DNA from: an uncultured Clostridium sp.
Lineage (GTDB): Bacteria; Bacillota; Clostridia; TANB77; CAG-508
Length of the DNA stretch: 64,000 nt
NCBI GenBank assembly: GCA_900553945.1
Contig: USFR01000004.1
Location: 60,161-124,160, forward strand
Direction of reading: 5' to 3'
Below the pieces are notes generated by a model that was not told the DNA's origin, did not search any database, and saw only the letters and a list, made by a program, of their open reading frames with translations. Positions 9,402 to 56,850 of the stretch are shown here, in pieces. Position 1 is the first letter of the stretch. Every line of letters begins with the position of its first letter. Both the position numbers and the translations under genes were made by a program.

Positions 9402-11810
9402 ATGAGAAAAGTAAATGAATTAAGTTATAAAGATTTAAAAGATGTATGCAATCCTAATATGTTTAAGTTTGATAAGATTAAGGAAGTTGCTGATACAACT
9501 AACTTAGTTTATGGTCAAGATAGAGGAATTAGAGCGCTAGAGTTTGGTGTTAATGTTGATTTGAAGGGATATAATTTATATCTTGAAGGTCCAACAGGTG
9601 TTGGAAAAACAATGTATACTAAAAAGTTTTTGCAAACGAGAGCTGCAAAAGAAAAGGTACCAAATGACTGGTGCTATATTTATAATTTTAATGATCCAAA
9701 TGAGCCTATAGCAGTTTCTTTGCCAGCTGGTCAAGGAAAAGTGTTCAAAGAAACAATGGATGCATTTATTAGAAATATTAGAAAAGATATAAAGAAAACT
9801 TTTAATAATGATGAGTTTGAAAAAGAGAAAAAGCTTATTAAACAAGAATTTGAAGAAAAGAAAGATTCTATTTTGGTTAAGTTAAATGACAAGACTTTGA
9901 AACATGGTTTTCAAGTTAAATCTGCTCAAAATGGAATTTATATGATGCCTGTTTATGAGGGAAAAACTATTGAAGAAGAAGAGTATGAAAAATTACCTTT
10001 AGAGGTTAAAAGTGAATTTGAAGCAAAATCTCAAATTGTTCAAGAGATGATTTTTGATACTTTGTCTGAATTGAAAATTATAGAGAACAAAGCTGATAAA
10101 AAAATAGAAGAATGGAAAGCGAATATAGCATTACTTACAGTAAATATTCATGTTAATAATGTTAAGGCAAATTATAAGAGAAATAAAAAGATTAATAATT
10201 TCTTGGATAATGTTAAAAAAGATATTTTGAAGAATGTTAATGCTTTTATGAATACAGAAAATGAGAACGATAATAAGCAACAACTTCCACCTCAAGTTAG
10301 AGCAATGCAAAATAATGAGCCTTGGTTAAATTATAGAGTAAATTTATTTGTGGATAATAGCAACTTAGAAGGTGCTCCAGTTATAATGGATTCAAATTAT
10401 ACTTTCCAAAATATTTTTGGAAAATTAGAATATGAGAATCAATATGGAATAATGAAAACTGATTTTACAATGTTAAAACCAGGTTTACTACAAAAAGCAA
10501 ATGGTGGTTATATTATTTTCCAAGCAAGGGATTTATTATCAAATCCTCAATGTTATGAGAATTTGAAAAAAGTTTTACTTGTTAAGGAAGTTAGCAGTGA
10601 AAATAGTATGGAACAACGTTCTTCAATGATGCTTGTTTCTTTAAAGCCAGAGCCAATTCCTTTGGATTTAAAGGTTATAATGATTGGTAATTCTGAGATT
10701 TATCATACTTTATTATCGATGGATGATGATTTTAGAAAGCTATTTAAAATTAAAGTAGAGTTTGAAGAAGATGCTCCTAAAACTGAAGAGAATATAGCTA
10801 AACTTGTTAAGTTCGTTAGAAGTTATTGCGAACAAGAAGATTTACTAGATGTTGATAAAGAAGCAATGGCAAGAATTGTTGAGTATGCATCAAAATTATC
10901 AGGCGATAAAGAAAAATTATCTACACAGTTTAGTGAGATAGGTCAGATAGTTGGTGAGGCTTCAACTTGGGCTAAACTTGATAAATCTAAAATAGTAACT
11001 CAAAAGTATGTTCAAAAAGCTTTTGATGAGAGAATTGAAAGAATTAAAAAGTATGATACAAAATATTCACAGATGATTAAAGAAGGTGCTTTGCTTATAA
11101 ATACAGAAGGTTATAAAGTTGGTCAAATCAACGGTTTGACGGTTATAACTATTGGTGATTATTCTTTTGGAAAGCCTTCTAAGATTACTGCAAATACTTA
11201 TATTGGTAGACAAGGAATTGTAAATATTGAAAGAGAAGTTCAAATGTCAGGTTCAACACATTCAAAAGGTGTTATGATTTTGACTGGATATTTAGGTGAG
11301 CTTTTTGCACAGGATAAGGCTTTATCACTAAATGCTAGTATTTGTTTTGAACAATTATATGGTGGTGTTGATGGTGATAGTGCATCTAGTACAGAAGCAT
11401 ATGCTATTCTTTCAAGTTTGTCTGAAATGCCTATAAATCAATCAATTGCTGTTACAGGTTCTGTAAATCAAAAAGGCGAAATTCAACCAATTGGTGGTGT
11501 TAATGAAAAGATAGAAGGATTTTTCCAAATTTGCAAGATGAGAGGTTTAAGTGGCGAACATGGAGTTATTATTCCAATACAGAATGTTAGAAACTTGCAT
11601 TTGAATGATGAAGTTGTAGATGCTGTTAAAAATGGATTGTTCCATATTTATGCTATTAGCACTATTGATGAAGGAATTGAGATTCTAACTGGTGTTCCAG
11701 CTGGTAAGAAAGATAAGTATGGTAAATTCCCAGCAGGTACAATTAATTATTTGGCTAATGAGAAGTTGACTAAGTATGCGCAATATGTTGAAAAAAATAA
11801 GAATATGTAA
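9402..11810 (+). CDS. Lon-like ATP-dependent protease (AAA+ domain + S16 Ser-Lys protease domain)
   Basis: Walker A GPTGVGKT. C-terminal Lon proteolytic-domain signature GDSASSTEAYAILSSL...TGSVNQKGEIQPIGGVNEKIEG. Confidence 0.75.
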   Translation: MRKVNELSYKDLKDVCNPNMFKFDKIKEVADTTNLVYGQDRGIRALEFGVNVDLKGYNLYLEGPTGVGKTMYTKKFLQTRAAKEKVPNDWCYIYNFNDPNEPIAVSLPAGQGKVFKETMDAFIRNIRKDIKKTFNNDEFEKEKKLIKQEFEEKKDSILVKLNDKTLKHGFQVKSAQNGIYMMPVYEGKTIEEEEYEKLPLEVKSEFEAKSQIVQEMIFDTLSELKIIENKADKKIEEWKANIALLTVNIHVNNVKANYKRNKKINNFLDNVKKDILKNVNAFMNTENENDNKQQLPPQVRAMQNNEPWLNYRVNLFVDNSNLEGAPVIMDSNYTFQNIFGKLEYENQYGIMKTDFTMLKPGLLQKANGGYIIFQARDLLSNPQCYENLKKVLLVKEVSSENSMEQRSSMMLVSLKPEPIPLDLKVIMIGNSEIYHTLLSMDDDFRKLFKIKVEFEEDAPKTEENIAKLVKFVRSYCEQEDLLDVDKEAMARIVEYASKLSGDKEKLSTQFSEIGQIVGEASTWAKLDKSKIVTQKYVQKAFDERIERIKKYDTKYSQMIKEGALLINTEGYKVGQINGLTVITIGDYSFGKPSKITANTYIGRQGIVNIEREVQMSGSTHSKGVMILTGYLGELFAQDKALSLNASICFEQLYGGVDGDSASSTEAYAILSSLSEMPINQSIAVTGSVNQKGEIQPIGGVNEKIEGFFQICKMRGLSGEHGVIIPIQNVRNLHLNDEVVDAVKNGLFHIYAISTIDEGIEILTGVPAGKKDKYGKFPAGTINYLANEKLTKYAQYVEKNKNM

Positions 11811-26895: not shown

Positions 26896-28653
26896 TTGAT
26901 TTTGAAGAAATGCGGTAGTGACTCAGGATATTTTAGTAAAGCGCATGGTAATTGTTTTGTTAGATTAAATGAAAATATGTATTGGCCAGTACTTTATTCT
27001 AGAGATGAACTAGCTAGTACATTTTTATCACAATTAGATACTGTATTTCATGAACTAAATCATTTCGAACAGGTTTTAAAGATGAAATCTGATAAATATG
27101 TTTCTTATAATAATTATAGAATGGCTCAGGAAGAAATTACTACATCAGATACAATATATGAAGATAATTATTGGAATATGCTACTTGAAATGGAAAGTAG
27201 ATTGGCTGGCAAAAGAAGAGTTGAAGAATTGATAAAAAGTTTAGGAGATAATTATGAATTTAAAGATTTGCTAGAGCAAAATATGGAGAGAACGGATAAA
27301 GAGGGATATATAGAAAATGTTCATGAGGTGACACCAAAATTGATACATGAAGAAGGATTTCAAGAGGGAGAAGCGGCTAGAAATCAATTATTACATGAAC
27401 GTATAGCTGGCCGTCCACAGTATTTAAAGGAATATCCAATATTAAGGTATAGATATAATGAAGATGGTTCTAGAAAAAAGATTTTGGATATTGTGAATGA
27501 TTTGTCTGAATATGCAAATGACGGGGAAAAAATAAAAATTCTTATTGAAACTCTTACAGAAGCGGTAGAGGAAGCAACAATAGATGAATTAAAAGAAGTT
27601 GAAGCAACTTATCCAGGTTCAGCAAGTTATATATATGAATTTTTATATGATGAAAATGAAATAAGATTTAAGCAAGAAAAAGAAATGATAAAGAATTTGA
27701 AGAAACAGAATTTGTTTTTTGGTACTGAAAATGATAAGTTTATTGATCAGAATTTAGAGCAAATTTTGGAGAGCAAATATAAAAGAAGATTTGAAATGCT
27801 AGAAATGTATCAAGACGGCAGATATGAGGAAGGATATGAATTAATAAATTATAATTTACAAAAAGGAGTAGATGTACCGTTAAGAGAAGATAATGTTTCA
27901 GATGTAGAGAATAATATACGTCATTTATTTGTTAGAGAAAATTTTATAGATGTGTATAATAAGACAGAGTCAGAGATAGATTTTAAAAATAGAGAATTTA
28001 ATGAGGATGTTAAAATAAGTTATGTGCTTAATGCAGTTGCAACAGGGAAGATTCCAAGTAGACTTTTTCATAGAATAGCTAGAACGTTTCCGAGATTTAC
28101 AAGAAATAATTTTAAAGAGTTAGCTGCAGTTTTTAAGGTAGCTGAGGATTTGACGTTACCTGGAGGAAAAAATTATGTGACTGAGTTATATAATATTCCA
28201 GATGTGCAGAAAATTGTGGAGAAAATGTTTGAATCTGATGTATATAAGGAAATTGTTGAAGAAAGCAAGTTAAGTTCACAACCAGAGAGAAAAACTCAAT
28301 TGGATTTGGATTATGAGATAGCAGATGAGTATTTACGTTACTTAGAATCTCCAGAAGATGAATTGAGTGAGTATGTGACAAATGATATTCCTACGATAGG
28401 TGAGAATGTGCCAGAAGCGGATAAGGCGATGTGGAAAATTACAACGATTCAAAAAGGATATTTAGTATCAGTTGAAGATGGGGATTGGGCAAGAAGCAGA
28501 GAACCGGTGTATTTAAAAAGTAGAAGAGATTTGATAATGGAAGATGCTGTTAGAGAAGCGATAAGAAGAAATGTTTCTTTTAATCAAGTGCAGGGTGTTA
28601 ATTTTAAAGAGGAACAAACACAAAATAAAGAAGGAGTTGATCAAGATGACTAG
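26896..28653 (+). CDS. hypothetical protein with HExxH motif (HELNH); same frame as 26695 ORF
   Basis: 585-aa ORF with an acidic C-terminus. The only start at 26896 is TTG, with no RBS. Confidence 0.45.
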   Translation: MILKKCGSDSGYFSKAHGNCFVRLNENMYWPVLYSRDELASTFLSQLDTVFHELNHFEQVLKMKSDKYVSYNNYRMAQEEITTSDTIYEDNYWNMLLEMESRLAGKRRVEELIKSLGDNYEFKDLLEQNMERTDKEGYIENVHEVTPKLIHEEGFQEGEAARNQLLHERIAGRPQYLKEYPILRYRYNEDGSRKKILDIVNDLSEYANDGEKIKILIETLTEAVEEATIDELKEVEATYPGSASYIYEFLYDENEIRFKQEKEMIKNLKKQNLFFGTENDKFIDQNLEQILESKYKRRFEMLEMYQDGRYEEGYELINYNLQKGVDVPLREDNVSDVENNIRHLFVRENFIDVYNKTESEIDFKNREFNEDVKISYVLNAVATGKIPSRLFHRIARTFPRFTRNNFKELAAVFKVAEDLTLPGGKNYVTELYNIPDVQKIVEKMFESDVYKEIVEESKLSSQPERKTQLDLDYEIADEYLRYLESPEDELSEYVTNDIPTIGENVPEADKAMWKITTIQKGYLVSVEDGDWARSREPVYLKSRRDLIMEDAVREAIRRNVSFNQVQGVNFKEEQTQNKEGVDQDD

Positions 28654-29083
28654 TACATACAGTAGAGCGTGTACAGAGGCGTTAGCAATTATAGATTGTT
28701 TAGCTGATGAGGAATATAATAAGATTCCGATTGAGAAGTTGAGATTTTTGGAGAATAATTGCGATTCAAGTTATTTGTTTAAAATTGATTCGGATGTTGA
28801 GCTAGCGGAGCAGAATGTTATGGATGAGACTTATGCGATTTTGCTTGCAATTTATAGGGATGACTTTGCAACGGAGAATCAGAAGAAGATTTTGAATACG
28901 TTGTTGATTCAGAATTTTAATGAGAAGGAAGAGGAGAAAAAGGAGAAGTATACGAAGTATCAGGAGTTACATGGGGAGGTTCACAAGGTTGAGGAGAGTG
29001 TGTCTGAGGTGGCTTTGGTGAGTGTTGAGAAGAAGTGGTATACGAAAGTATTTGAGTTTGTGAAGAGGATGCTTGGAAAGTGA
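28646..29083 (+). CDS. hypothetical protein
   Basis: AAGGAG RBS lies 8 nt before ATG at 28646. Overlaps the upstream stop. Confidence 0.45.
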   Translation: MTSTYSRACTEALAIIDCLADEEYNKIPIEKLRFLENNCDSSYLFKIDSDVELAEQNVMDETYAILLAIYRDDFATENQKKILNTLLIQNFNEKEEEKKEKYTKYQELHGEVHKVEESVSEVALVSVEKKWYTKVFEFVKRMLGK

Positions 29084-29339: not shown

Positions 29340-29831
29340 ATGAGAGATTATACAAATAAAGAAGTAAAATATGAAGGATGTCCAGGATGTGCTTTTGCCA
29401 AGCACGAATTTGAGTTGCCTTGTGGGATAGCTTATGAGAATGAAAGATTTACACTAGCACAAGATTGGGAATTGCCAATTGAAGGCTTTATGATAGTTTC
29501 ACCTAAAAGACATATTGAAAAATTGAGTGAGCTTTCGAGAGATGAGAGAATTGAAATGTTTGATATAGTTGATAGAACTATTAAGATTTTGAGAGAGAAT
29601 GGTGTTTGCGAAAACTTCGATGTGATTTTTGAAGAGAGAGCGGATAGACATTTGCATGTATGGATCATGCCTAGACATGAATGGATGATGGAGATTTGCG
29701 AGGATATTATTGATAATGTAGGCGTTGTGTGTGAGTTCGCGAAGGAGAGATTTAGGACGGATGAGGTTTATGAGAGGATTGCTGAGGTTAGTGAGATTGT
29801 GAGAGAAGGATTTGAGAAGAGAGAGAGGTAA
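29340..29831 (+). CDS. HIT-like (histidine-triad/GalT-like) family protein
   Basis: CPGC near the N-terminus. HLHVWIMPRH near the C-terminus resembles an HxHxH-type triad. Weak call. Confidence 0.4.
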   Translation: MRDYTNKEVKYEGCPGCAFAKHEFELPCGIAYENERFTLAQDWELPIEGFMIVSPKRHIEKLSELSRDERIEMFDIVDRTIKILRENGVCENFDVIFEERADRHLHVWIMPRHEWMMEICEDIIDNVGVVCEFAKERFRTDEVYERIAEVSEIVREGFEKRER

Positions 29832-30727
29832 TGGATGATTTAGTGAATTTGGTAGTTACTGCTAGAAGTGAAGCGGAGTGTTTAAATTTTTTGAGGCTAA
29901 TTTATGAAGGAAAAGAGTATACTTGTGATGACTTGAAGAAGTATGTGAATGAGAATGGATTGAATTTTGATACGTTTTTGAAAGAAACAACAATAAAATA
30001 TAGAGGTAATTCAAAGAAATATTTAGAGTATGTAGATGGATTTAATGAAATTGGTTTTAAATTGCCTGCATCAGAATTATATCTGAATAAATATTCAATT
30101 GATTTGAGATATTATCGTGATATTCAGAAGGCATTGATGATTAATTTTATTGAAAGAATTGAAGATGCTTTGTCTAATGCTAAGATTTATATTGGACAAG
30201 CTTTGTGGGTTTTGCCTGATAATTATGATGAGAGTTATGTTATTACATATAATAAGAGGACGCTTAGTTTTGAGAATGCTTGTATGAGTTTATATAGTTG
30301 TTATGATTATATGTTGTGCTTGGTTTATTCTTATTATAAATATAAGGAGTTAATTACTGGAGATAAGGATTTTGAGATACTTCTTAAAGAAGCAAAGTAT
30401 AGTAGAGTTAAAAAGATGCTGACAGAAGAGATAAAAGATGAGCGAGCTTTGAGAATATTGAAAATATTAGATGATTTGTTGGTTAAGATTACTCAGGTTC
30501 GTGATTGGTGTAATGCGGTGAAGCATAGAGGTGGTATTGAGTATTATGGATTGAAGCCTAAGCATCTTTTTAGGGTGGAGGTTAGTGTTCATGGAAAAAA
30601 GGTGGATACTACGAATTTGTTTAGGTTGCCAGTTGTAGATATTGATGAGAAGATGGAGAGTGTTATGATGGCGTATGTGGCGACGTATGAAGCTGTTCAG
30701 AAGATTGTGATAAAATTAGAAAGATAG
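29831..30727 (+). CDS. hypothetical protein
   Basis: 298 aa. ATGG overlap with the upstream gene. Confidence 0.45.
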   Translation: MDDLVNLVVTARSEAECLNFLRLIYEGKEYTCDDLKKYVNENGLNFDTFLKETTIKYRGNSKKYLEYVDGFNEIGFKLPASELYLNKYSIDLRYYRDIQKALMINFIERIEDALSNAKIYIGQALWVLPDNYDESYVITYNKRTLSFENACMSLYSCYDYMLCLVYSYYKYKELITGDKDFEILLKEAKYSRVKKMLTEEIKDERALRILKILDDLLVKITQVRDWCNAVKHRGGIEYYGLKPKHLFRVEVSVHGKKVDTTNLFRLPVVDIDEKMESVMMAYVATYEAVQKIVIKLER

Positions 30728-30839
30728 AGGAATAGGTTATATATTTGATGATAAGAGTTGTTTTGAAAATGAATTATATGTGTAGAGAATTGATTTATAA
30801 AAATAGTTGAAAATATAAAAAAATAAGAAGACTCATAAC

Positions 30840-30884
30840 TCGAAGGTCGTAAGTTCGAGTCCTGCCTTCGCAACCAACGAAATT
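30840..30884 (+). other. 3' tRNA fragment (T-arm + acceptor 3' strand + ACCA): probable att-site remnant of an integrated island
   Basis: CGAAG|GTC|GTAAG-TTCGAGT-CCTGC|CTTCGCA-A-CCA. T-loop TTCGAGT. The acceptor strand partly pairs with upstream CGAAG. No D-arm or anticodon arm. Confidence 0.45.
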
Positions 30885-31005
30885 ATTAGAGTCGCAAGAG
30901 ATTGAAGACCAATTATTTTTGGCGTGAAAGTTTGAGAGTATTAAAAATACTATAAAAATATGGAAATAATTTGCTTTTTCGGATATAATTCAAAAGAATA
31001 AATAT

Positions 31006-32079
31006 TTGGGGGTGAATATTATTAAAAAGACTACTACAGAATATAGAGAATGGAAGAAACGAAACGATGTAAAAAAACAGAGAAACAGAGCAAAACACAA
31101 AAAGAAAAAAAGTAATAATAGTTATTCAATTAGTAACAAAAGTTCTACGTTTCAACCGTATAAAACATTTACAGTTCCACAAGTATTTAGTATAATAGAA
31201 AATCCAGAGCAAACTATAAAATTTTTTAATTCGATATTAGAAATAATTGAAAAGATACGAAAAATGGTTAAGCAAAGAAAAAATAAGCAATCTATGTATT
31301 TTTTCAGAATTGATATGAAAGAAGTAAAAAAGATTACAGGAGATGCTTTAATGTATTTACTGACAGTAATAAAAAATACGAGAGGTAAGAAGAGTCTTCC
31401 TGTAAATTGGATAGGAAATTTTCCAAAAGATATGGAAATAAGAGAATTTCTACAAGCATCTGGTTATTTAGAATATATGAAAACTGATAAAAAAAATTTA
31501 ATAAAAACTAATGAGAAAATACAAATAAGAACAGGAAAAAATTATGTATATGCAGATAATAAAGACATTAGAAAAGAAGTTGTTGATTTTACAGTTGAAA
31601 AGTTAAATAAAAATAAAAAAGAAATGTTATTTCTATTTAATATATTGACTGAAGTTATCACTAATATAGAACATGCATATAATATAAAAGATGATTTGAT
31701 CTTTGACCCATCTTGGTATATAATGGTAGAAAATAATTTTGATAAAATAAAATATACTTTTATGGATAACGGCTTAGGAATACCAACAACTGTTAAGAAA
31801 AAAGCATTTGAGGAAATATTAAAGAAGTTTAATATAGATACAGAATATAAATATATAAAATCAGCTTTAGATGGGTCATATAAAAGAACTCAAACAGAAA
31901 AAAGAGAAAGAAGTACAGGATTACCAGATGTTTATGAAAAACTAAAGAATAAAAAGATATGTAATTTAATTATAATTTCAAATAGTGCATATTATTGCGA
32001 AGATAATCCGAGGGATATTAATGAAAATTTAATTGGAACAATTATATGTTGGGAAATAAAAAAGGAGAAGAGTGTATGA
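31006..32079 (+). CDS. GHKL-superfamily (HATPase_c-like) ATPase
   Basis: N-box-like LTEVITNIEHA, G1 box DNGLGIP, G2-like RSTGLPDV. The start is uncertain (TTG at 31006; internal Met candidates). The stop overlaps the next ATG (ATGA). Confidence 0.55.
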   Translation: MGVNIIKKTTTEYREWKKRNDVKKQRNRAKHKKKKSNNSYSISNKSSTFQPYKTFTVPQVFSIIENPEQTIKFFNSILEIIEKIRKMVKQRKNKQSMYFFRIDMKEVKKITGDALMYLLTVIKNTRGKKSLPVNWIGNFPKDMEIREFLQASGYLEYMKTDKKNLIKTNEKIQIRTGKNYVYADNKDIRKEVVDFTVEKLNKNKKEMLFLFNILTEVITNIEHAYNIKDDLIFDPSWYIMVENNFDKIKYTFMDNGLGIPTTVKKKAFEEILKKFNIDTEYKYIKSALDGSYKRTQTEKRERSTGLPDVYEKLKNKKICNLIIISNSAYYCEDNPRDINENLIGTIICWEIKKEKSV

Positions 32080-32411
32080 TAATAAAAATAGCAGAAGATT
32101 ATACAGAAACACCAGGAGCTAGATATTATGAGCAAGGACCATTTCCTGGGGAAGAATTTAGAGATAAATATTTATATCCAAAATATTTAGAGTGCTTAGA
32201 AAAAAAAGAAGAGCTTATTGTTGATTTAGACGGGGGGTATGGATATGGTTCATCTTTTTTAGAGGAAGCTTTTGGAGGATTAATTAGAAGATTAAAAAAA
32301 GAAGATAAAGAATATAAACCAGCACTAAAATTAATAAAAATTATTTCTAATGACGAGACATCATGGATAGAAAAAATAGATGGATATATGAAAGCAGAAA
32401 TAAATGTATAA
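32076..32411 (+). CDS. small STAS-like (DUF4325-type) protein, translationally coupled to the GHKL ATPase
   Basis: AAAGGAGAAG RBS, then ATG at 32076 overlapping the upstream TGA. The ~111-aa protein reads MIIKIAEDYTETPGARYY...IVDLDGGYGYGSSFLEEAFGG. Family assignment is from memory, not verified. Confidence 0.45.
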   Translation: MIIKIAEDYTETPGARYYEQGPFPGEEFRDKYLYPKYLECLEKKEELIVDLDGGYGYGSSFLEEAFGGLIRRLKKEDKEYKPALKLIKIISNDETSWIEKIDGYMKAEINV

Positions 32412-32424
32412 GTAGGGGGATAAG

Positions 32425-32961
32425 ATGAAGAATGCATGGAAAGTATTAGCTATTGTAGGAATAATAGTAATTTTTATAGTATTATCTGTAATTAGTTGTA
32501 TTTGTAATGGAATGTCTGAATTTTTTTCATTTAATTTAGTTGAGATATTAACATTAGGAATAGCTTCTATATTAATATATTATTTAACAGAAAAGAATAA
32601 TGATAAAAGAAAGAAAAATGAAAAAATAGAAAATCTAATAATAGAAATAAGTTCAAAATTAAATAGCATTTCTCTACAGATACCTTCAAAAGGAAAACAA
32701 AAAGAGTATTTATATTGCTTTAAATATATATCTAATAAATTCAATGTTCTAAAATTATTGATTGAAAAAGATGACGAAAGAAATTTGGAAAATGCAGAAA
32801 AAGAATTTGAAAATCTAAGAGTGTTTATAACTGATAATATTAATCAAGATGAATCATATTTTGAAAATTTAAAAGATAAAATACCTAACTATGTTAGTAA
32901 TATAGATACATTTCTAGATAAGATAATCGTTAACATATATAAGCAAAATAGTAGCAAATAA
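32425..32961 (+). CDS. membrane protein with one N-terminal TM helix and coiled-coil tail
   Basis: AWKVLAIVGIIVIFIVLSVISCIC TM segment. 14 nt downstream of the STAS-like gene. Terminator hairpin tagtagca/tgctacta plus T run at 32946-32985. Confidence 0.45.
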   Translation: MKNAWKVLAIVGIIVIFIVLSVISCICNGMSEFFSFNLVEILTLGIASILIYYLTEKNNDKRKKNEKIENLIIEISSKLNSISLQIPSKGKQKEYLYCFKYISNKFNVLKLLIEKDDERNLENAEKEFENLRVFITDNINQDESYFENLKDKIPNYVSNIDTFLDKIIVNIYKQNSSK

Positions 32962-33353
32962 CTGCTACTATTTATTTTTTGCTCTATTTTTATAAACATT
33001 ATAGATAGGAAAAATTAAAGGATATTATAACAATAGGAAAAAATTACAAAAGTTAGAAGAATGATTAAGTTATGTGACAATATAGAAAAACAAGGTTTGG
33101 AAAAATTAGAATAAATAAAAGTTTTTGAAGAAAGAAACAGGAAAAAACAAAAGAAAAGCAAGAAAAAAGATAGAAGATATGAAAGATAGAACTGGCACAG
33201 AAATGTGCCAGAAAAATTTTAATAAATAAAATGAAAAGTATTGCAAAATAAACAAATGTTTGATAGTATATAAAAAATAAAAATATTGTCAAAAAAATGG
33301 AAAAAATTTAAAAAATATGATATAAAATATAAATAGAAAAGGAGAGTTATATT

Positions 33354-55373: not shown

Positions 55374-55430
55374 GATTACAGGTAAAATATGAGTGCGGTT
55401 AAAATTAGCGCTGGGAAGAATTGGATTTTT

Positions 55431-56630
55431 ATGGAGAGAAAGTTTTTACATATTGATGTTAATAATGCTTTTTTGTCTTGGACTGCGGTTGATAGGTTGA
55501 AGAAGGGCGATAGGGTTGATTTGAGAACGATTCCAGCGGTTATTGGTGGTGATGAGGCTAAGCGTCATGGGATTGTTGTTGCTAAGAGTAATGTTGCTAA
55601 AAAGTTTGGCATTCAAACTGCTGAGCCTTTGTACATGGCGAGGAGAAAGTGTCCAAGTATAATTGTTATTCCAGGTGATTTTGATCTTTATAGAAGTTGT
55701 TCAAATAAACTATATAAGCTTTTTTTAGAGTATACGGAGAAGGTGGAAAGGTTTTCAATTGATGAGTGTTTTTTAGATTTGACTGAATATTTGAAACCTG
55801 GTGTGGATTTGATTAAGCTTGGTATCGAGATTAAAGAACGTGTAAAAAAAGAGTTTGGATTTACTGTTAATGTTGGTGTTTCTGATGATAAGATTTTGGC
55901 TAAGATTGCTTCTGATTTTGAGAAGCCTGATAAGATTCATACGTTATTTAAGTCGGAGATTAAGGATAAATTGTGGAGATTGCCCGTTTCTGAGATGTTT
56001 TTAGTCGGTAAGAAATCAATTCCTAAGTTGAATAGAATGGGGATAAGGACTGTTGGAGATTTGGCTAATACTGATAAAGCTGTTTTAATAAAAGAGTTTG
56101 GAAAGTATGGATATACTATTTGGAAATATGCAAATGGGGAGAGTGGCGAGGAGGTAAATTATTTACCTGAAAAGCCTAAAGGTATTGGAAATAGTATAAC
56201 TTTGCCATATGATGTTGCTTCTTTAGATGAGCTTGAGGTTACGTTGGTTGAATTGGTTGAGAAGGTTTCTTATAGATTAAGAAAAGAAAATATGTATGCG
56301 ACTGTTGTGAATGTTCAGCTTAAAAATAATAATTTTAAAAGTTATTCTCATCAGAAGAAGTTAATGGGGAGAACTGATTCGACGAGTGAGATTTTGAGTG
56401 TTGCGAAAGAGCTTTTGAAGGAGTTGTTTATTGGTGAGCCAATTAGGTTAATTGGTGTTAGGGCTGATGGTTTGGTTGAAAAAGAGGAGATGCAACTTTC
56501 AATTTTTGATATGAAGGAAGATTCTAAGAATAAAAAATTGGATGATACTATGGATAAGTTGAAGGATAAGTTCGGTTATAATATTCTTACTAGAGCTACG
56601 GAATTGAAGGGGAATATGAAGTCGGAATGA
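55431..56630 (+). CDS. Y-family DNA polymerase (DinB/Pol IV-like)
   Basis: HIDVNNAFLSW active-site region (D..F). Fingers/palm/little-finger length. The ATG at 55389 lies only ~9 nt after the -10, so the ATG at 55431 (MERKF) is preferred. Confidence 0.75.
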   Translation: MERKFLHIDVNNAFLSWTAVDRLKKGDRVDLRTIPAVIGGDEAKRHGIVVAKSNVAKKFGIQTAEPLYMARRKCPSIIVIPGDFDLYRSCSNKLYKLFLEYTEKVERFSIDECFLDLTEYLKPGVDLIKLGIEIKERVKKEFGFTVNVGVSDDKILAKIASDFEKPDKIHTLFKSEIKDKLWRLPVSEMFLVGKKSIPKLNRMGIRTVGDLANTDKAVLIKEFGKYGYTIWKYANGESGEEVNYLPEKPKGIGNSITLPYDVASLDELEVTLVELVEKVSYRLRKENMYATVVNVQLKNNNFKSYSHQKKLMGRTDSTSEILSVAKELLKELFIGEPIRLIGVRADGLVEKEEMQLSIFDMKEDSKNKKLDDTMDKLKDKFGYNILTRATELKGNMKSE

Positions 56631-56850
56631 TATAGAATCATAGAATTAAAGAGTGATATGAAATCTGAATAATTTAGAATCATAGAATTAAAGAGCAATA
56701 TGAAATCTGAATAATTTAGAATTATAGAATTAAAGAAAATATGAATGTGAATATTCTAAATCTGCAGAGTTAAAAGGTAATATAAAATATAATGATTTAT
56801 AGTTACAGAACTAGAAGGGTAACATAAAACCTGAATAATCATATAATATA
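56596..56850 (+). repeat. tandem degenerate duplications (~42-bp unit, ~5 copies) of the 3' end of the polymerase gene
   Basis: GAATTGAAGGGGAATATGAAGTCGGAATGA (gene end) is followed by GAATCATAGAATTAAAGAGTGATATGAAATCTGAATAA x2, then decayed copies. Confidence 0.7.

Follow-up and report, generated by a model that had tools for sequence, protein, structure and literature searches.

A mobile three-gene cassette encoding a kinase-like protein, a DUF4325 protein, and a membrane protein: a candidate phosphorylation-gated switch in an uncultured Clostridium sp.

Two sister systems built around a serine kinase with STAS and GHKL domains have recently been described. In one of them, CapK (helix-turn-helix [HTH], STAS, and GHKL domains) is switched on by single-stranded DNA (ssDNA) and phosphorylates Ser54 of CapS, a STAS-winged-HTH (wHTH) protein, which then leaves DNA (Chambers et al., EMBO J 2026, PMC13373217). 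In the other, the three-gene VapKSC system, VapS (a STAS domain with a short tail) neutralizes the PIN toxin VapC; the phosphomimetic substitution S48E in VapS abolishes this neutralization and releases the toxin, and the operon provides approximately 2 logs of protection against phage Bas42 (PMC13373217). A VapC/PIN group ("PIN.4") was also reported to be transcriptionally coupled to DUF4325 genes (PMC5499597). The main text of PMC13373217 does not contain the word "transmembrane" and presents no membrane-effector version. Here, we characterize a cassette of three genes, referred to as K, S, and T, in a 64,000-nucleotide stretch of DNA from an uncultured Clostridium sp. (contig USFR01000004.1, positions 60,161 to 124,160; hereafter, the window). 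With roughly even confidence, we interpret the cassette as a horizontally mobile three-part switch of the CapK/VapKSC kind that has a membrane effector, i.e., a phosphorylation-gated, toxin-antitoxin-like abortive-infection module.

We found no triad of kinase, STAS protein, and membrane protein described in the literature on DUF4325, STAS/GHKL kinases, VapKSC, CapK, and prophage STAS-like proteins. Searches of PADLOC-DB v2 gave no match at E <= 0.1 for K, S, or T, and NCBIfam has no model for them. Since none of the three proteins has a PADLOC model, the statement in an earlier note on this DNA that no named defense system has this composition holds. The sister architectures (CapK/CapS and VapK/VapS/VapC; 2026) are known, and the kinase-STAS pair combined with a membrane protein appears neither in PADLOC-DB v2 nor in the literature searched. 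In the window, positions 30937-33001 (2.07 kb) make up a single transcription unit with three same-strand open reading frames (ORFs) across 31006-32961, as follows.

30937-31005, forward strand: conserved 5' region of the cassette; the 95% identity to four gut-metagenome contigs (L054 to L057) starts exactly at 30937, and the flanks are unrelated
30961-30989, forward strand: promoter-like site TGGAAA-17 nt-TATAAT from a promoter scan (consensus match only)
31006-32079, forward strand: K, a 357-residue STAS-GHKL serine-kinase-like protein; start codon TTG at 31006 or GTG at 31012
32076-32411, forward strand: S, a 111-residue STAS-like (DUF4325) protein, translationally coupled to K
32425-32961, forward strand: T, a 178-residue membrane protein and candidate effector/toxin
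32946-32982, forward strand: intrinsic-terminator-like hairpin with an 11-bp stem (32946-32973) and a T-run, overlapping the stop codon of T

The ATGA coupling of the first two genes proposed in the earlier note is present, with the ATG start codon of S at 32076 and the TGA stop codon of K ending at 32079. The spacer between S and T is 13 nt rather than the 14 nt given previously, and the start of T is preceded by a GGGGG ribosome-binding motif. A terminator had also been placed after the third gene, and the hairpin with its T-run lies there; terminator-like sites numbered 2, against 0.3 expected. The 3' boundary of the conserved cassette is at 33001. The closest K homologs are 355 residues long.

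The cassette resembles VapKSC in several respects. The gene order in both is kinase, small STAS protein, and a third gene in the effector position, and both kinases combine a STAS domain with a SpoIIAB-like GHKL domain in one chain. Both small proteins are DUF4325 proteins that have a short C-terminal tail and a conserved Ser/Thr where STAS helix alpha-2 begins, and both systems are often located near other defense genes or on mobile elements. In contrast to VapKSC, in which the third gene encodes a PIN/VapC nuclease, the third gene here encodes a protein with two transmembrane (TM) helices and a four-helix bundle, and K has an additional basic N-terminal helix. With CapKS, the cassette shares a STAS-GHKL kinase and a STAS substrate with a conserved Ser, and CapK is the best profile match of K. 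However, CapK has an N-terminal HTH where K has a single basic helix. CapS carries a wHTH at its C terminus and acts as the repressor of a downstream operon, while S lacks a DNA-binding domain. The cassette also has its own terminator and is followed by different genes in every context, unlike an arrangement in which S would control the promoter of a downstream immune operon.

K itself had no match in scans of Pfam, NCBIfam, and PADLOC. A word-indexed search yielded 119 clusters of K homologs, and a 24-sequence alignment was made. In this alignment, the N box (E216, N220, H223, and A224), the G1 box (D254-x-G256-x-G258), and the G2 box (R302 and G305-L306-P307) are invariant, as are G344-T345, and 12 of the 24 homologs match PF02518 (HATPase_c). 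The AlphaFold2 model of K (predicted local distance difference test score [pLDDT], 84.4; predicted template modeling score [pTM], 0.79) has three parts: an N-terminal helix composed almost entirely of Lys/Arg (residues ~10-37), an alpha/beta STAS domain (residues ~50-180), and an alpha/beta sandwich that corresponds to a SpoIIAB-like GHKL domain (residues ~188-352). K is thus a STAS domain fused to an anti-sigma-type (SpoIIAB/RsbW) serine-kinase domain, with the N, G1, and G2 boxes and the fold of this GHKL (Bergerat-fold) subtype. The earlier description of the first gene product as an HATPase_c-type protein of approximately 350 residues was therefore accurate, but the HATPase_c_3 family named for it was not; the HATPase_c_3/MORC-type ATPase identity was dropped because the homologs match PF02518 and the fold is SpoIIAB-like.

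Searches against structures added little to this assignment. A phmmer search of K against PDB returned only a spurious PabI match, the K profile gave only a marginal histidine-kinase match in PDB (E = 0.18), and Foldseek against viral structures produced one significant match, which was unnamed and uninformative. Profile-profile alignment by hhalign linked the K family to CapK with a probability of 92.9% (E = 3.8e-7); the aligned region begins at the end of the STAS domain and continues through the G1 box. On these comparisons, K is a separate family that shares the STAS-GHKL architecture and lies outside the VapK and CapK families. F61 of K is nearly invariant and represents an aromatic candidate residue for ssDNA contact. 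Mapping of the CapK ssDNA-groove residues W68, K237, and K239 onto K was considered but set aside, the alignment there being too uncertain.

S matches PF14213 (DUF4325, "STAS-like") at 3e-10, with 40.1 bits against a cutoff of 23, which agrees with the 111-residue STAS-like DUF4325 protein described in the earlier note. In the Pfam check suggested there, neither K nor T has a match of its own. Across 26 diverse homologs of S, the motif DGxxGY-x-x-S-F-(L/I)-(E/D)-E-(A/S/T/V)-F-G-G-L is conserved, and Ser60 (codon 32253-32255) is invariant, whereas the residue before it can be S, T, P, or K. Ser60 lies where STAS helix alpha-2 starts and is the candidate phospho-acceptor. VapS belongs to the same Pfam family (PF14213 at 2.7e-17) and is the best PDB match of the S profile (9z7o), although this match is weak (E = 0.51). 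The "SSF" of S is in register with S53-S54-F55 of CapS in a weak alignment (E = 0.06). An hhalign comparison of the S profile with SpoIIAA gave no signal (probability, 0.3%), and the assignment of S to the STAS fold consequently rests on Pfam DUF4325 and on the links to VapS and CapS.

At least 7,956 clusters (90% identity) were retrieved by a profile search with S. The best 120 of these matches are all stand-alone proteins of 104-128 residues with PF14213, and they are named "STAS-like domain-containing protein" by NCBI. K and S belong to PHROGs 3364 and 5816, for which no function is annotated. S and gp40 of Marinobacter phage AS1 (see below) align only to positions 341-438 of the 441-position phrog_5816 profile. 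This C-terminal match suggests that some phage proteins carry a DUF4325 domain fused behind a larger N-terminal portion, which may be the ATPase.

The third protein had been described as a single-TM coiled-coil protein, but hydrophobic stretches cover residues 8-26 and 36-54 of T, and the protein has two predicted TM helices (TM1, residues ~4-30; TM2, residues ~35-55, continuing as a stalk helix), followed by a predicted four-helix bundle in its C-terminal part (residues ~89-176). The structure model was built on an 11-sequence alignment. TM2 is followed by the basic juxtamembrane sequence KNDKRKKN, which is conserved as KNDxRK in the family. Because this basic motif follows TM2, the positive-inside rule would place the C-terminal ~120 residues of T in the cytoplasm, with a short extracytoplasmic loop of ~4-8 residues. 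T has no catalytic-looking invariant residues. Scans of Pfam, NCBIfam, and PADLOC gave no significant match for T and no PIN match.

The three genes are inherited together. A species-level scan (one genome per species) identified 53 loci in Clostridia, Oscillospiraceae, Lachnospiraceae, Ruminococcus, Bacilli, "Tenericutes," Erysipelotrichaceae, Eubacteriaceae, Endomicrobiaceae, Spirochaetes, Treponemataceae, Bacteroidales, Fusobacteriaceae, and Deltaproteobacteria. Profile hidden Markov models (HMMs) of K, S, and T were run on 70 loci, 61 of which were informative (at least 950 nt after K). K, S, and T occur in this order and with tight spacing in 58 of the 61. One further locus (L050) has a divergent third gene that also encodes a two-TM protein; the third gene product is thus a two-TM helical protein in 58 to 59 of the 61 loci. 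Across 42 loci, the distance matrices of K, S, and T correlate with one another (Mantel r = 0.78-0.85; p <= 5e-4), and T never occurs in a locus that lacks S. When the K profile was used for an exhaustive HMM search, 4,289 clusters (50% identity) were retrieved at E <= 1e-3 and 1,127 at E <= 1e-30, and the best 150 matches are 268-398 residues long, nearly all spanning almost the whole profile. The K family is therefore large. The reported numbers for VapKSC (289) and CapKS (443) are gene instances and not clusters (PMC13373217), and they are not directly comparable with the 1,127 K clusters.

S is the best conserved of the three (mean pairwise identity, 47%), followed by K (33%) and T (22%), so T is the fastest-diverging component. 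Such divergence is expected for a protein that faces diverse phages and would fit a different role for T, namely, that of a superinfection-exclusion or membrane-surveillance component (Sie/Imm-like) that blocks or senses genome entry and is tuned by K and S, or that of a sensor whose output is the phosphorylation state of K and S. The lack of catalytic-looking residues in T and the location of the triad at prophage immunity or moron positions are also compatible with these roles. However, only the ~4-8 loop residues of T would be exposed outside the membrane, the cassette offers T as its only output domain, and in the characterized relatives it is the kinase that senses a cytoplasmic cue and the third component that acts as the effector. 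We therefore regard an exclusion or sensor role for T as unlikely.

Our preferred reading, a kinase-controlled switch that releases a membrane effector, would operate as follows. K would be the sensor kinase, with its STAS domain packed against the SpoIIAB-type GHKL domain and a lysine/arginine-rich helix in front; S, a single-domain STAS (DUF4325) protein, would be its substrate; and T would be a two-pass inner-membrane protein with its four-helix bundle directed toward the cytoplasm. In an uninfected cell, unphosphorylated S would sit on the cytoplasmic bundle of T and keep T inert, S thereby acting as an antitoxin. K would be activated by an infection or DNA-damage cue, which may be ssDNA bound between the STAS and GHKL domains if the analogy with CapK and VapK holds. 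K would then phosphorylate Ser60 of S, and phosphorylated S would leave T, which would oligomerize or change conformation and compromise the membrane. The predicted outcome is growth arrest or death before phage progeny are produced (i.e., abortive infection or superinfection exclusion). The switch would be one-way, because no phosphatase is encoded in the cassette.

Two further observations concern the integrity of T and S. In two of the four contigs nearly identical to the window cassette (L054 and L055, from different samples), T is frameshifted by a T8 -> T9 change at ~11505-11515 (window ~32518-32526), which could be an assembly error or could reflect genuine inactivation or phase variation of a gene that is costly. 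In another gut-metagenome contig (L072, 7001-9279), K is intact, S is cut to 59 residues, T is gone, and a Fic-domain gene follows; its sister contigs (L073 to L076) have the full K-S-T triad. The frameshifts, the loss of S and T in L072, and the absence of loci with T but not S are consistent with T being costly. Together with the autonomous mobility of the cassette, its location at prophage immunity-region or moron positions, and the lack of an encoded phosphatase, they also fit the proposed switch.

The cassette appears in unrelated surroundings. The 2.07-kb region is ~95% identical to the four gut-metagenome contigs, which have unrelated flanks: one side includes a mutator-type transposase, and the opposite side includes a tyrosine integrase and SIR2_2. 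Apart from AT-rich chance matches, no direct or inverted repeats were detected at the ends of the cassette, and we therefore do not claim a discrete transposable unit. On a Leptospira interrogans plasmid, the triad (annotated as an ATP-binding protein, a STAS-like domain-containing protein, and a hypothetical protein) lies beside an MNT-HepT toxin-antitoxin pair and ParB. Such carriage on mobile elements, the movement of an autonomous 2-kb unit, and the decay of the cassette in some lineages could also be explained by an addiction module with the same biochemistry that stabilizes prophages, plasmids, and islands without a role in phage defense. However, simple post-segregational killing needs no dedicated sensor kinase, the related VapKSC protects against phage, and the window copy is located near R-M (restriction-modification) and Mrr genes and CRISPR-Cas. 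A purely addictive function seems to us distinctly unlikely, and addiction and defense are compatible roles.

The triad was also identified in 12 IMG/VR viral contigs, usually beside endolysin or amidase genes, with integrase, anti-repressor, and terminase genes in the vicinity. A tblastn search of K against INPHARED phages found no match; the protein search with S did find the cultured temperate Marinobacter phage AS1. In AS1, the triad consists of three overlapping genes directly after the CI-like HTH gene AS1_42 and divergent from cro. AS1_41 (371 residues) matches the K profile at 1.7e-24 and also has a basic N terminus, AS1_40 is a DUF4325 protein 46% identical to S, and AS1_39 (159 residues) has one hydrophobic segment. 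The same layout can be read from a table for the Francisella prophage KIRK, which gives a CI repressor, a 293-residue protein, a 112-residue DUF4325 protein, and a 125-residue TM protein (PMC7924643). Because the genes of the AS1 and Francisella prophage triads are co-oriented with the repressor gene and lie just downstream of it, they are probably expressed in lysogens.

In phage lambda, rexAB occupies the position just downstream of the repressor gene, and Rex consists of two components, neither of which is a kinase or a STAS protein. The AS1 and Francisella triads share with RexAB this co-oriented position and the combination of a cytoplasmic sensor with a small membrane protein. The likeness is a functional analogy, as no sequence or fold relationship is expected. 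More tentatively than the switch itself, we suggest that K-S-T may form a large unnamed branch of STAS-GHKL kinase immune switches that is borne by prophages and islands and acts by Rex-like abortive infection, in which a nucleic-acid-sensing kinase would phosphorylate a STAS antitoxin and thereby free a new type of small membrane-disrupting effector. In that case, the kinase-STAS pair would be a general, exchangeable trigger for unrelated toxins.

The viral contigs also bear on whether the cassette might be a prophage lysis-timing device, with T as a phosphorylation-regulated holin- or antiholin-like protein. An endolysin/amidase gene immediately adjoins the cassette in 4 to 5 of 9 viral contigs, holins are present in 3 genomic flanks, and the two-TM topology of T is like that of class II holins. 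Against this, T had no match to holin families in Pfam and PHROGs, and the AS1 triad lies in the lysogeny (CI-side) unit, away from the lysozyme gene. Most genomic loci, including the window, have no phage lysis genes nearby, and the area beside prophage lysis genes is also a known site of accessory (moron) genes. Given the lack of holin homology and the CI-side location in AS1, we consider this explanation highly improbable, the least probable of those weighed here.

In a census of the 150 nearest flanking proteins of 43 loci, the Pfam families seen most often were serine recombinases (7), AAA_14 (4), tyrosine integrases (4), DUF4143 (3), YhcG/DUF1016 (3), Mob_Pre (3), phage holins (3), AbiH (2), and Fic (2). 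The best PADLOC matches in the flanks were the candidate systems PDC-S01, S02, and S04. No sigma factor or PP2C phosphatase was present among the 25 most frequent families of these flanks or at the window locus. These mobile-element, prophage, and defense flanks agree with the suggestion in the earlier note that the context argues against sigma-factor control. A partner switch that controls neighboring genes (R-M, HNH, Mrr, or CRISPR-Cas), as in CapKS, or a sigma factor, as in SpoIIAB-SpoIIAA, would be in line with the folds of K and its partner, which resemble SpoIIAB/RsbW kinases and their SpoIIAA/RsbV antagonists, and with the frequent location of capKS next to R-M systems (PMC13373217). 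However, K has a fused STAS domain, its partner is a DUF4325 protein and not a canonical STAS protein, and the module is mobile, with links to prophages and plasmids. We judge a transcriptional role to be very unlikely, because S (111 residues; STAS only) has no wHTH or other DNA-binding domain, sigma factors and PP2C are not among the frequent flank families, and the cassette has its own terminator and neighbors that differ completely between loci. In addition, the invariant third partner is a membrane protein.

Several points weigh against reading the cassette as a phosphorylation-gated abortive-infection switch. The K profile scores CapK (21.5 bits), SpoIIAB (18.6 bits), and VapK (18.4 bits) about equally, and its hhalign probability with VapK is 46% over 218 columns. 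As the link of K to VapK and CapK is weak, the ssDNA trigger is an extrapolation from shared architecture. In the sequence register, Ser48 of VapS aligns one residue before the invariant Ser60, and the CapS alignment that places S54 on S60 is nonsignificant on its own. In the commonest gut lineage (P0074), the cassette is surrounded by metabolic/housekeeping-type genes and has no recognizable defense neighbor. The flank counts are raw and have no matched background control. Finally, the evidence on the family comes from sequence, predicted structure, and genomic context. These establish the architecture, the joint inheritance of the three genes, and their carriage on mobile elements and prophages, whereas the trigger, phosphorylation of S by K, binding of S to T, toxicity of T, and phage protection are inferred.

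If the switch reading is correct, the cassette would be a widespread and easily cloned 2-kb candidate defense system, frequent among human-gut Firmicutes as well as in prophages and plasmids. Effector release by STAS phosphorylation would then extend from a nuclease toxin to a membrane effector, in support of the view that the pair of STAS-GHKL kinase and DUF4325 protein is a portable sensor module. A function would also be provided for a large share of Pfam DUF4325 and of PHROGs 3364 and 5816, and the cassette represents a tractable system for studying how a serine kinase senses infection.

The surroundings of the cassette in the window were found as described in the earlier note (i.e., an att-like tRNA fragment, R-M/HNH/Mrr genes, and CRISPR-Cas) and comprise the following features.

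30826-30876, forward strand: decayed 3' portion of an initiator-tRNA-Met-like sequence (anticodon loop CTCATAA ... GCAACCA); context, outside the operon and unique in the window
33354-36928: four genes in a row, encoding a D12-class N6-adenine methyltransferase, a TdeIII-type restriction endonuclease, an HNH protein (weak Mrr_N match), and an Mrr_cat protein
39351-48196: type I-B-like cas operon (Cas6, Cas8b-like CXXC_CXXC, Cas7/DevR, Cas5, Cas3, and Cas1), followed by a CRISPR array
47699-48196: the CRISPR array, with 8 repeats at 65-67-nt spacing

The assignment of the fragment at 30826-30876 to tRNA-fMet is our reading of the sequence; ARAGORN and Rfam call nothing there, and Rfam detected no RNA family in 30650-33400. 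The counterpart of the fragment in contig L001 (6274-6417) has an intact T-arm and adjoins a tyrosine integrase, with K-S-T just beyond. The fragment is probably a relic attachment (att) site that marks the edge of an island, and the comparison suggests that the cassette is carried by an element with tRNA-fMet as its integration site, the integrase of which has been lost in the window. The G+C content falls near the fragment, from ~0.30-0.35 at 28-31 kb to ~0.22-0.27 at 31-38 kb.

Other genes in the window were also recorded. Between the Mrr gene and cas6, two overlapping genes (37118-38008, 296 residues; 38005-38553, 182 residues) match PHROGs 4672 (2.3e-16) and 4613 (2.2e-14), respectively, both of unknown function. 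The 296-residue protein has no match in Pfam, PADLOC, or NCBIfam, and the 182-residue protein, which was scanned against Pfam only, has none there. The pair may be another phage-derived two-gene module in the island. Directly upstream of the tRNA fragment, a HIT-family protein gene (29340-29831; PF01230, 2.4e-6) overlaps by ATGA with a gene for a 298-residue protein (29831-30727) that has no family match. Farther upstream, two ORFs (26896-28653, 585 residues; 28571-29083, 170 residues) have no NCBIfam or PADLOC match, and the 585-residue ORF has none in PHROGs either. A tandem repeat with a 42-nt period and ~6 copies (75-86% matches) is located at 56590-56840, right after the ORF at 55389-56630.

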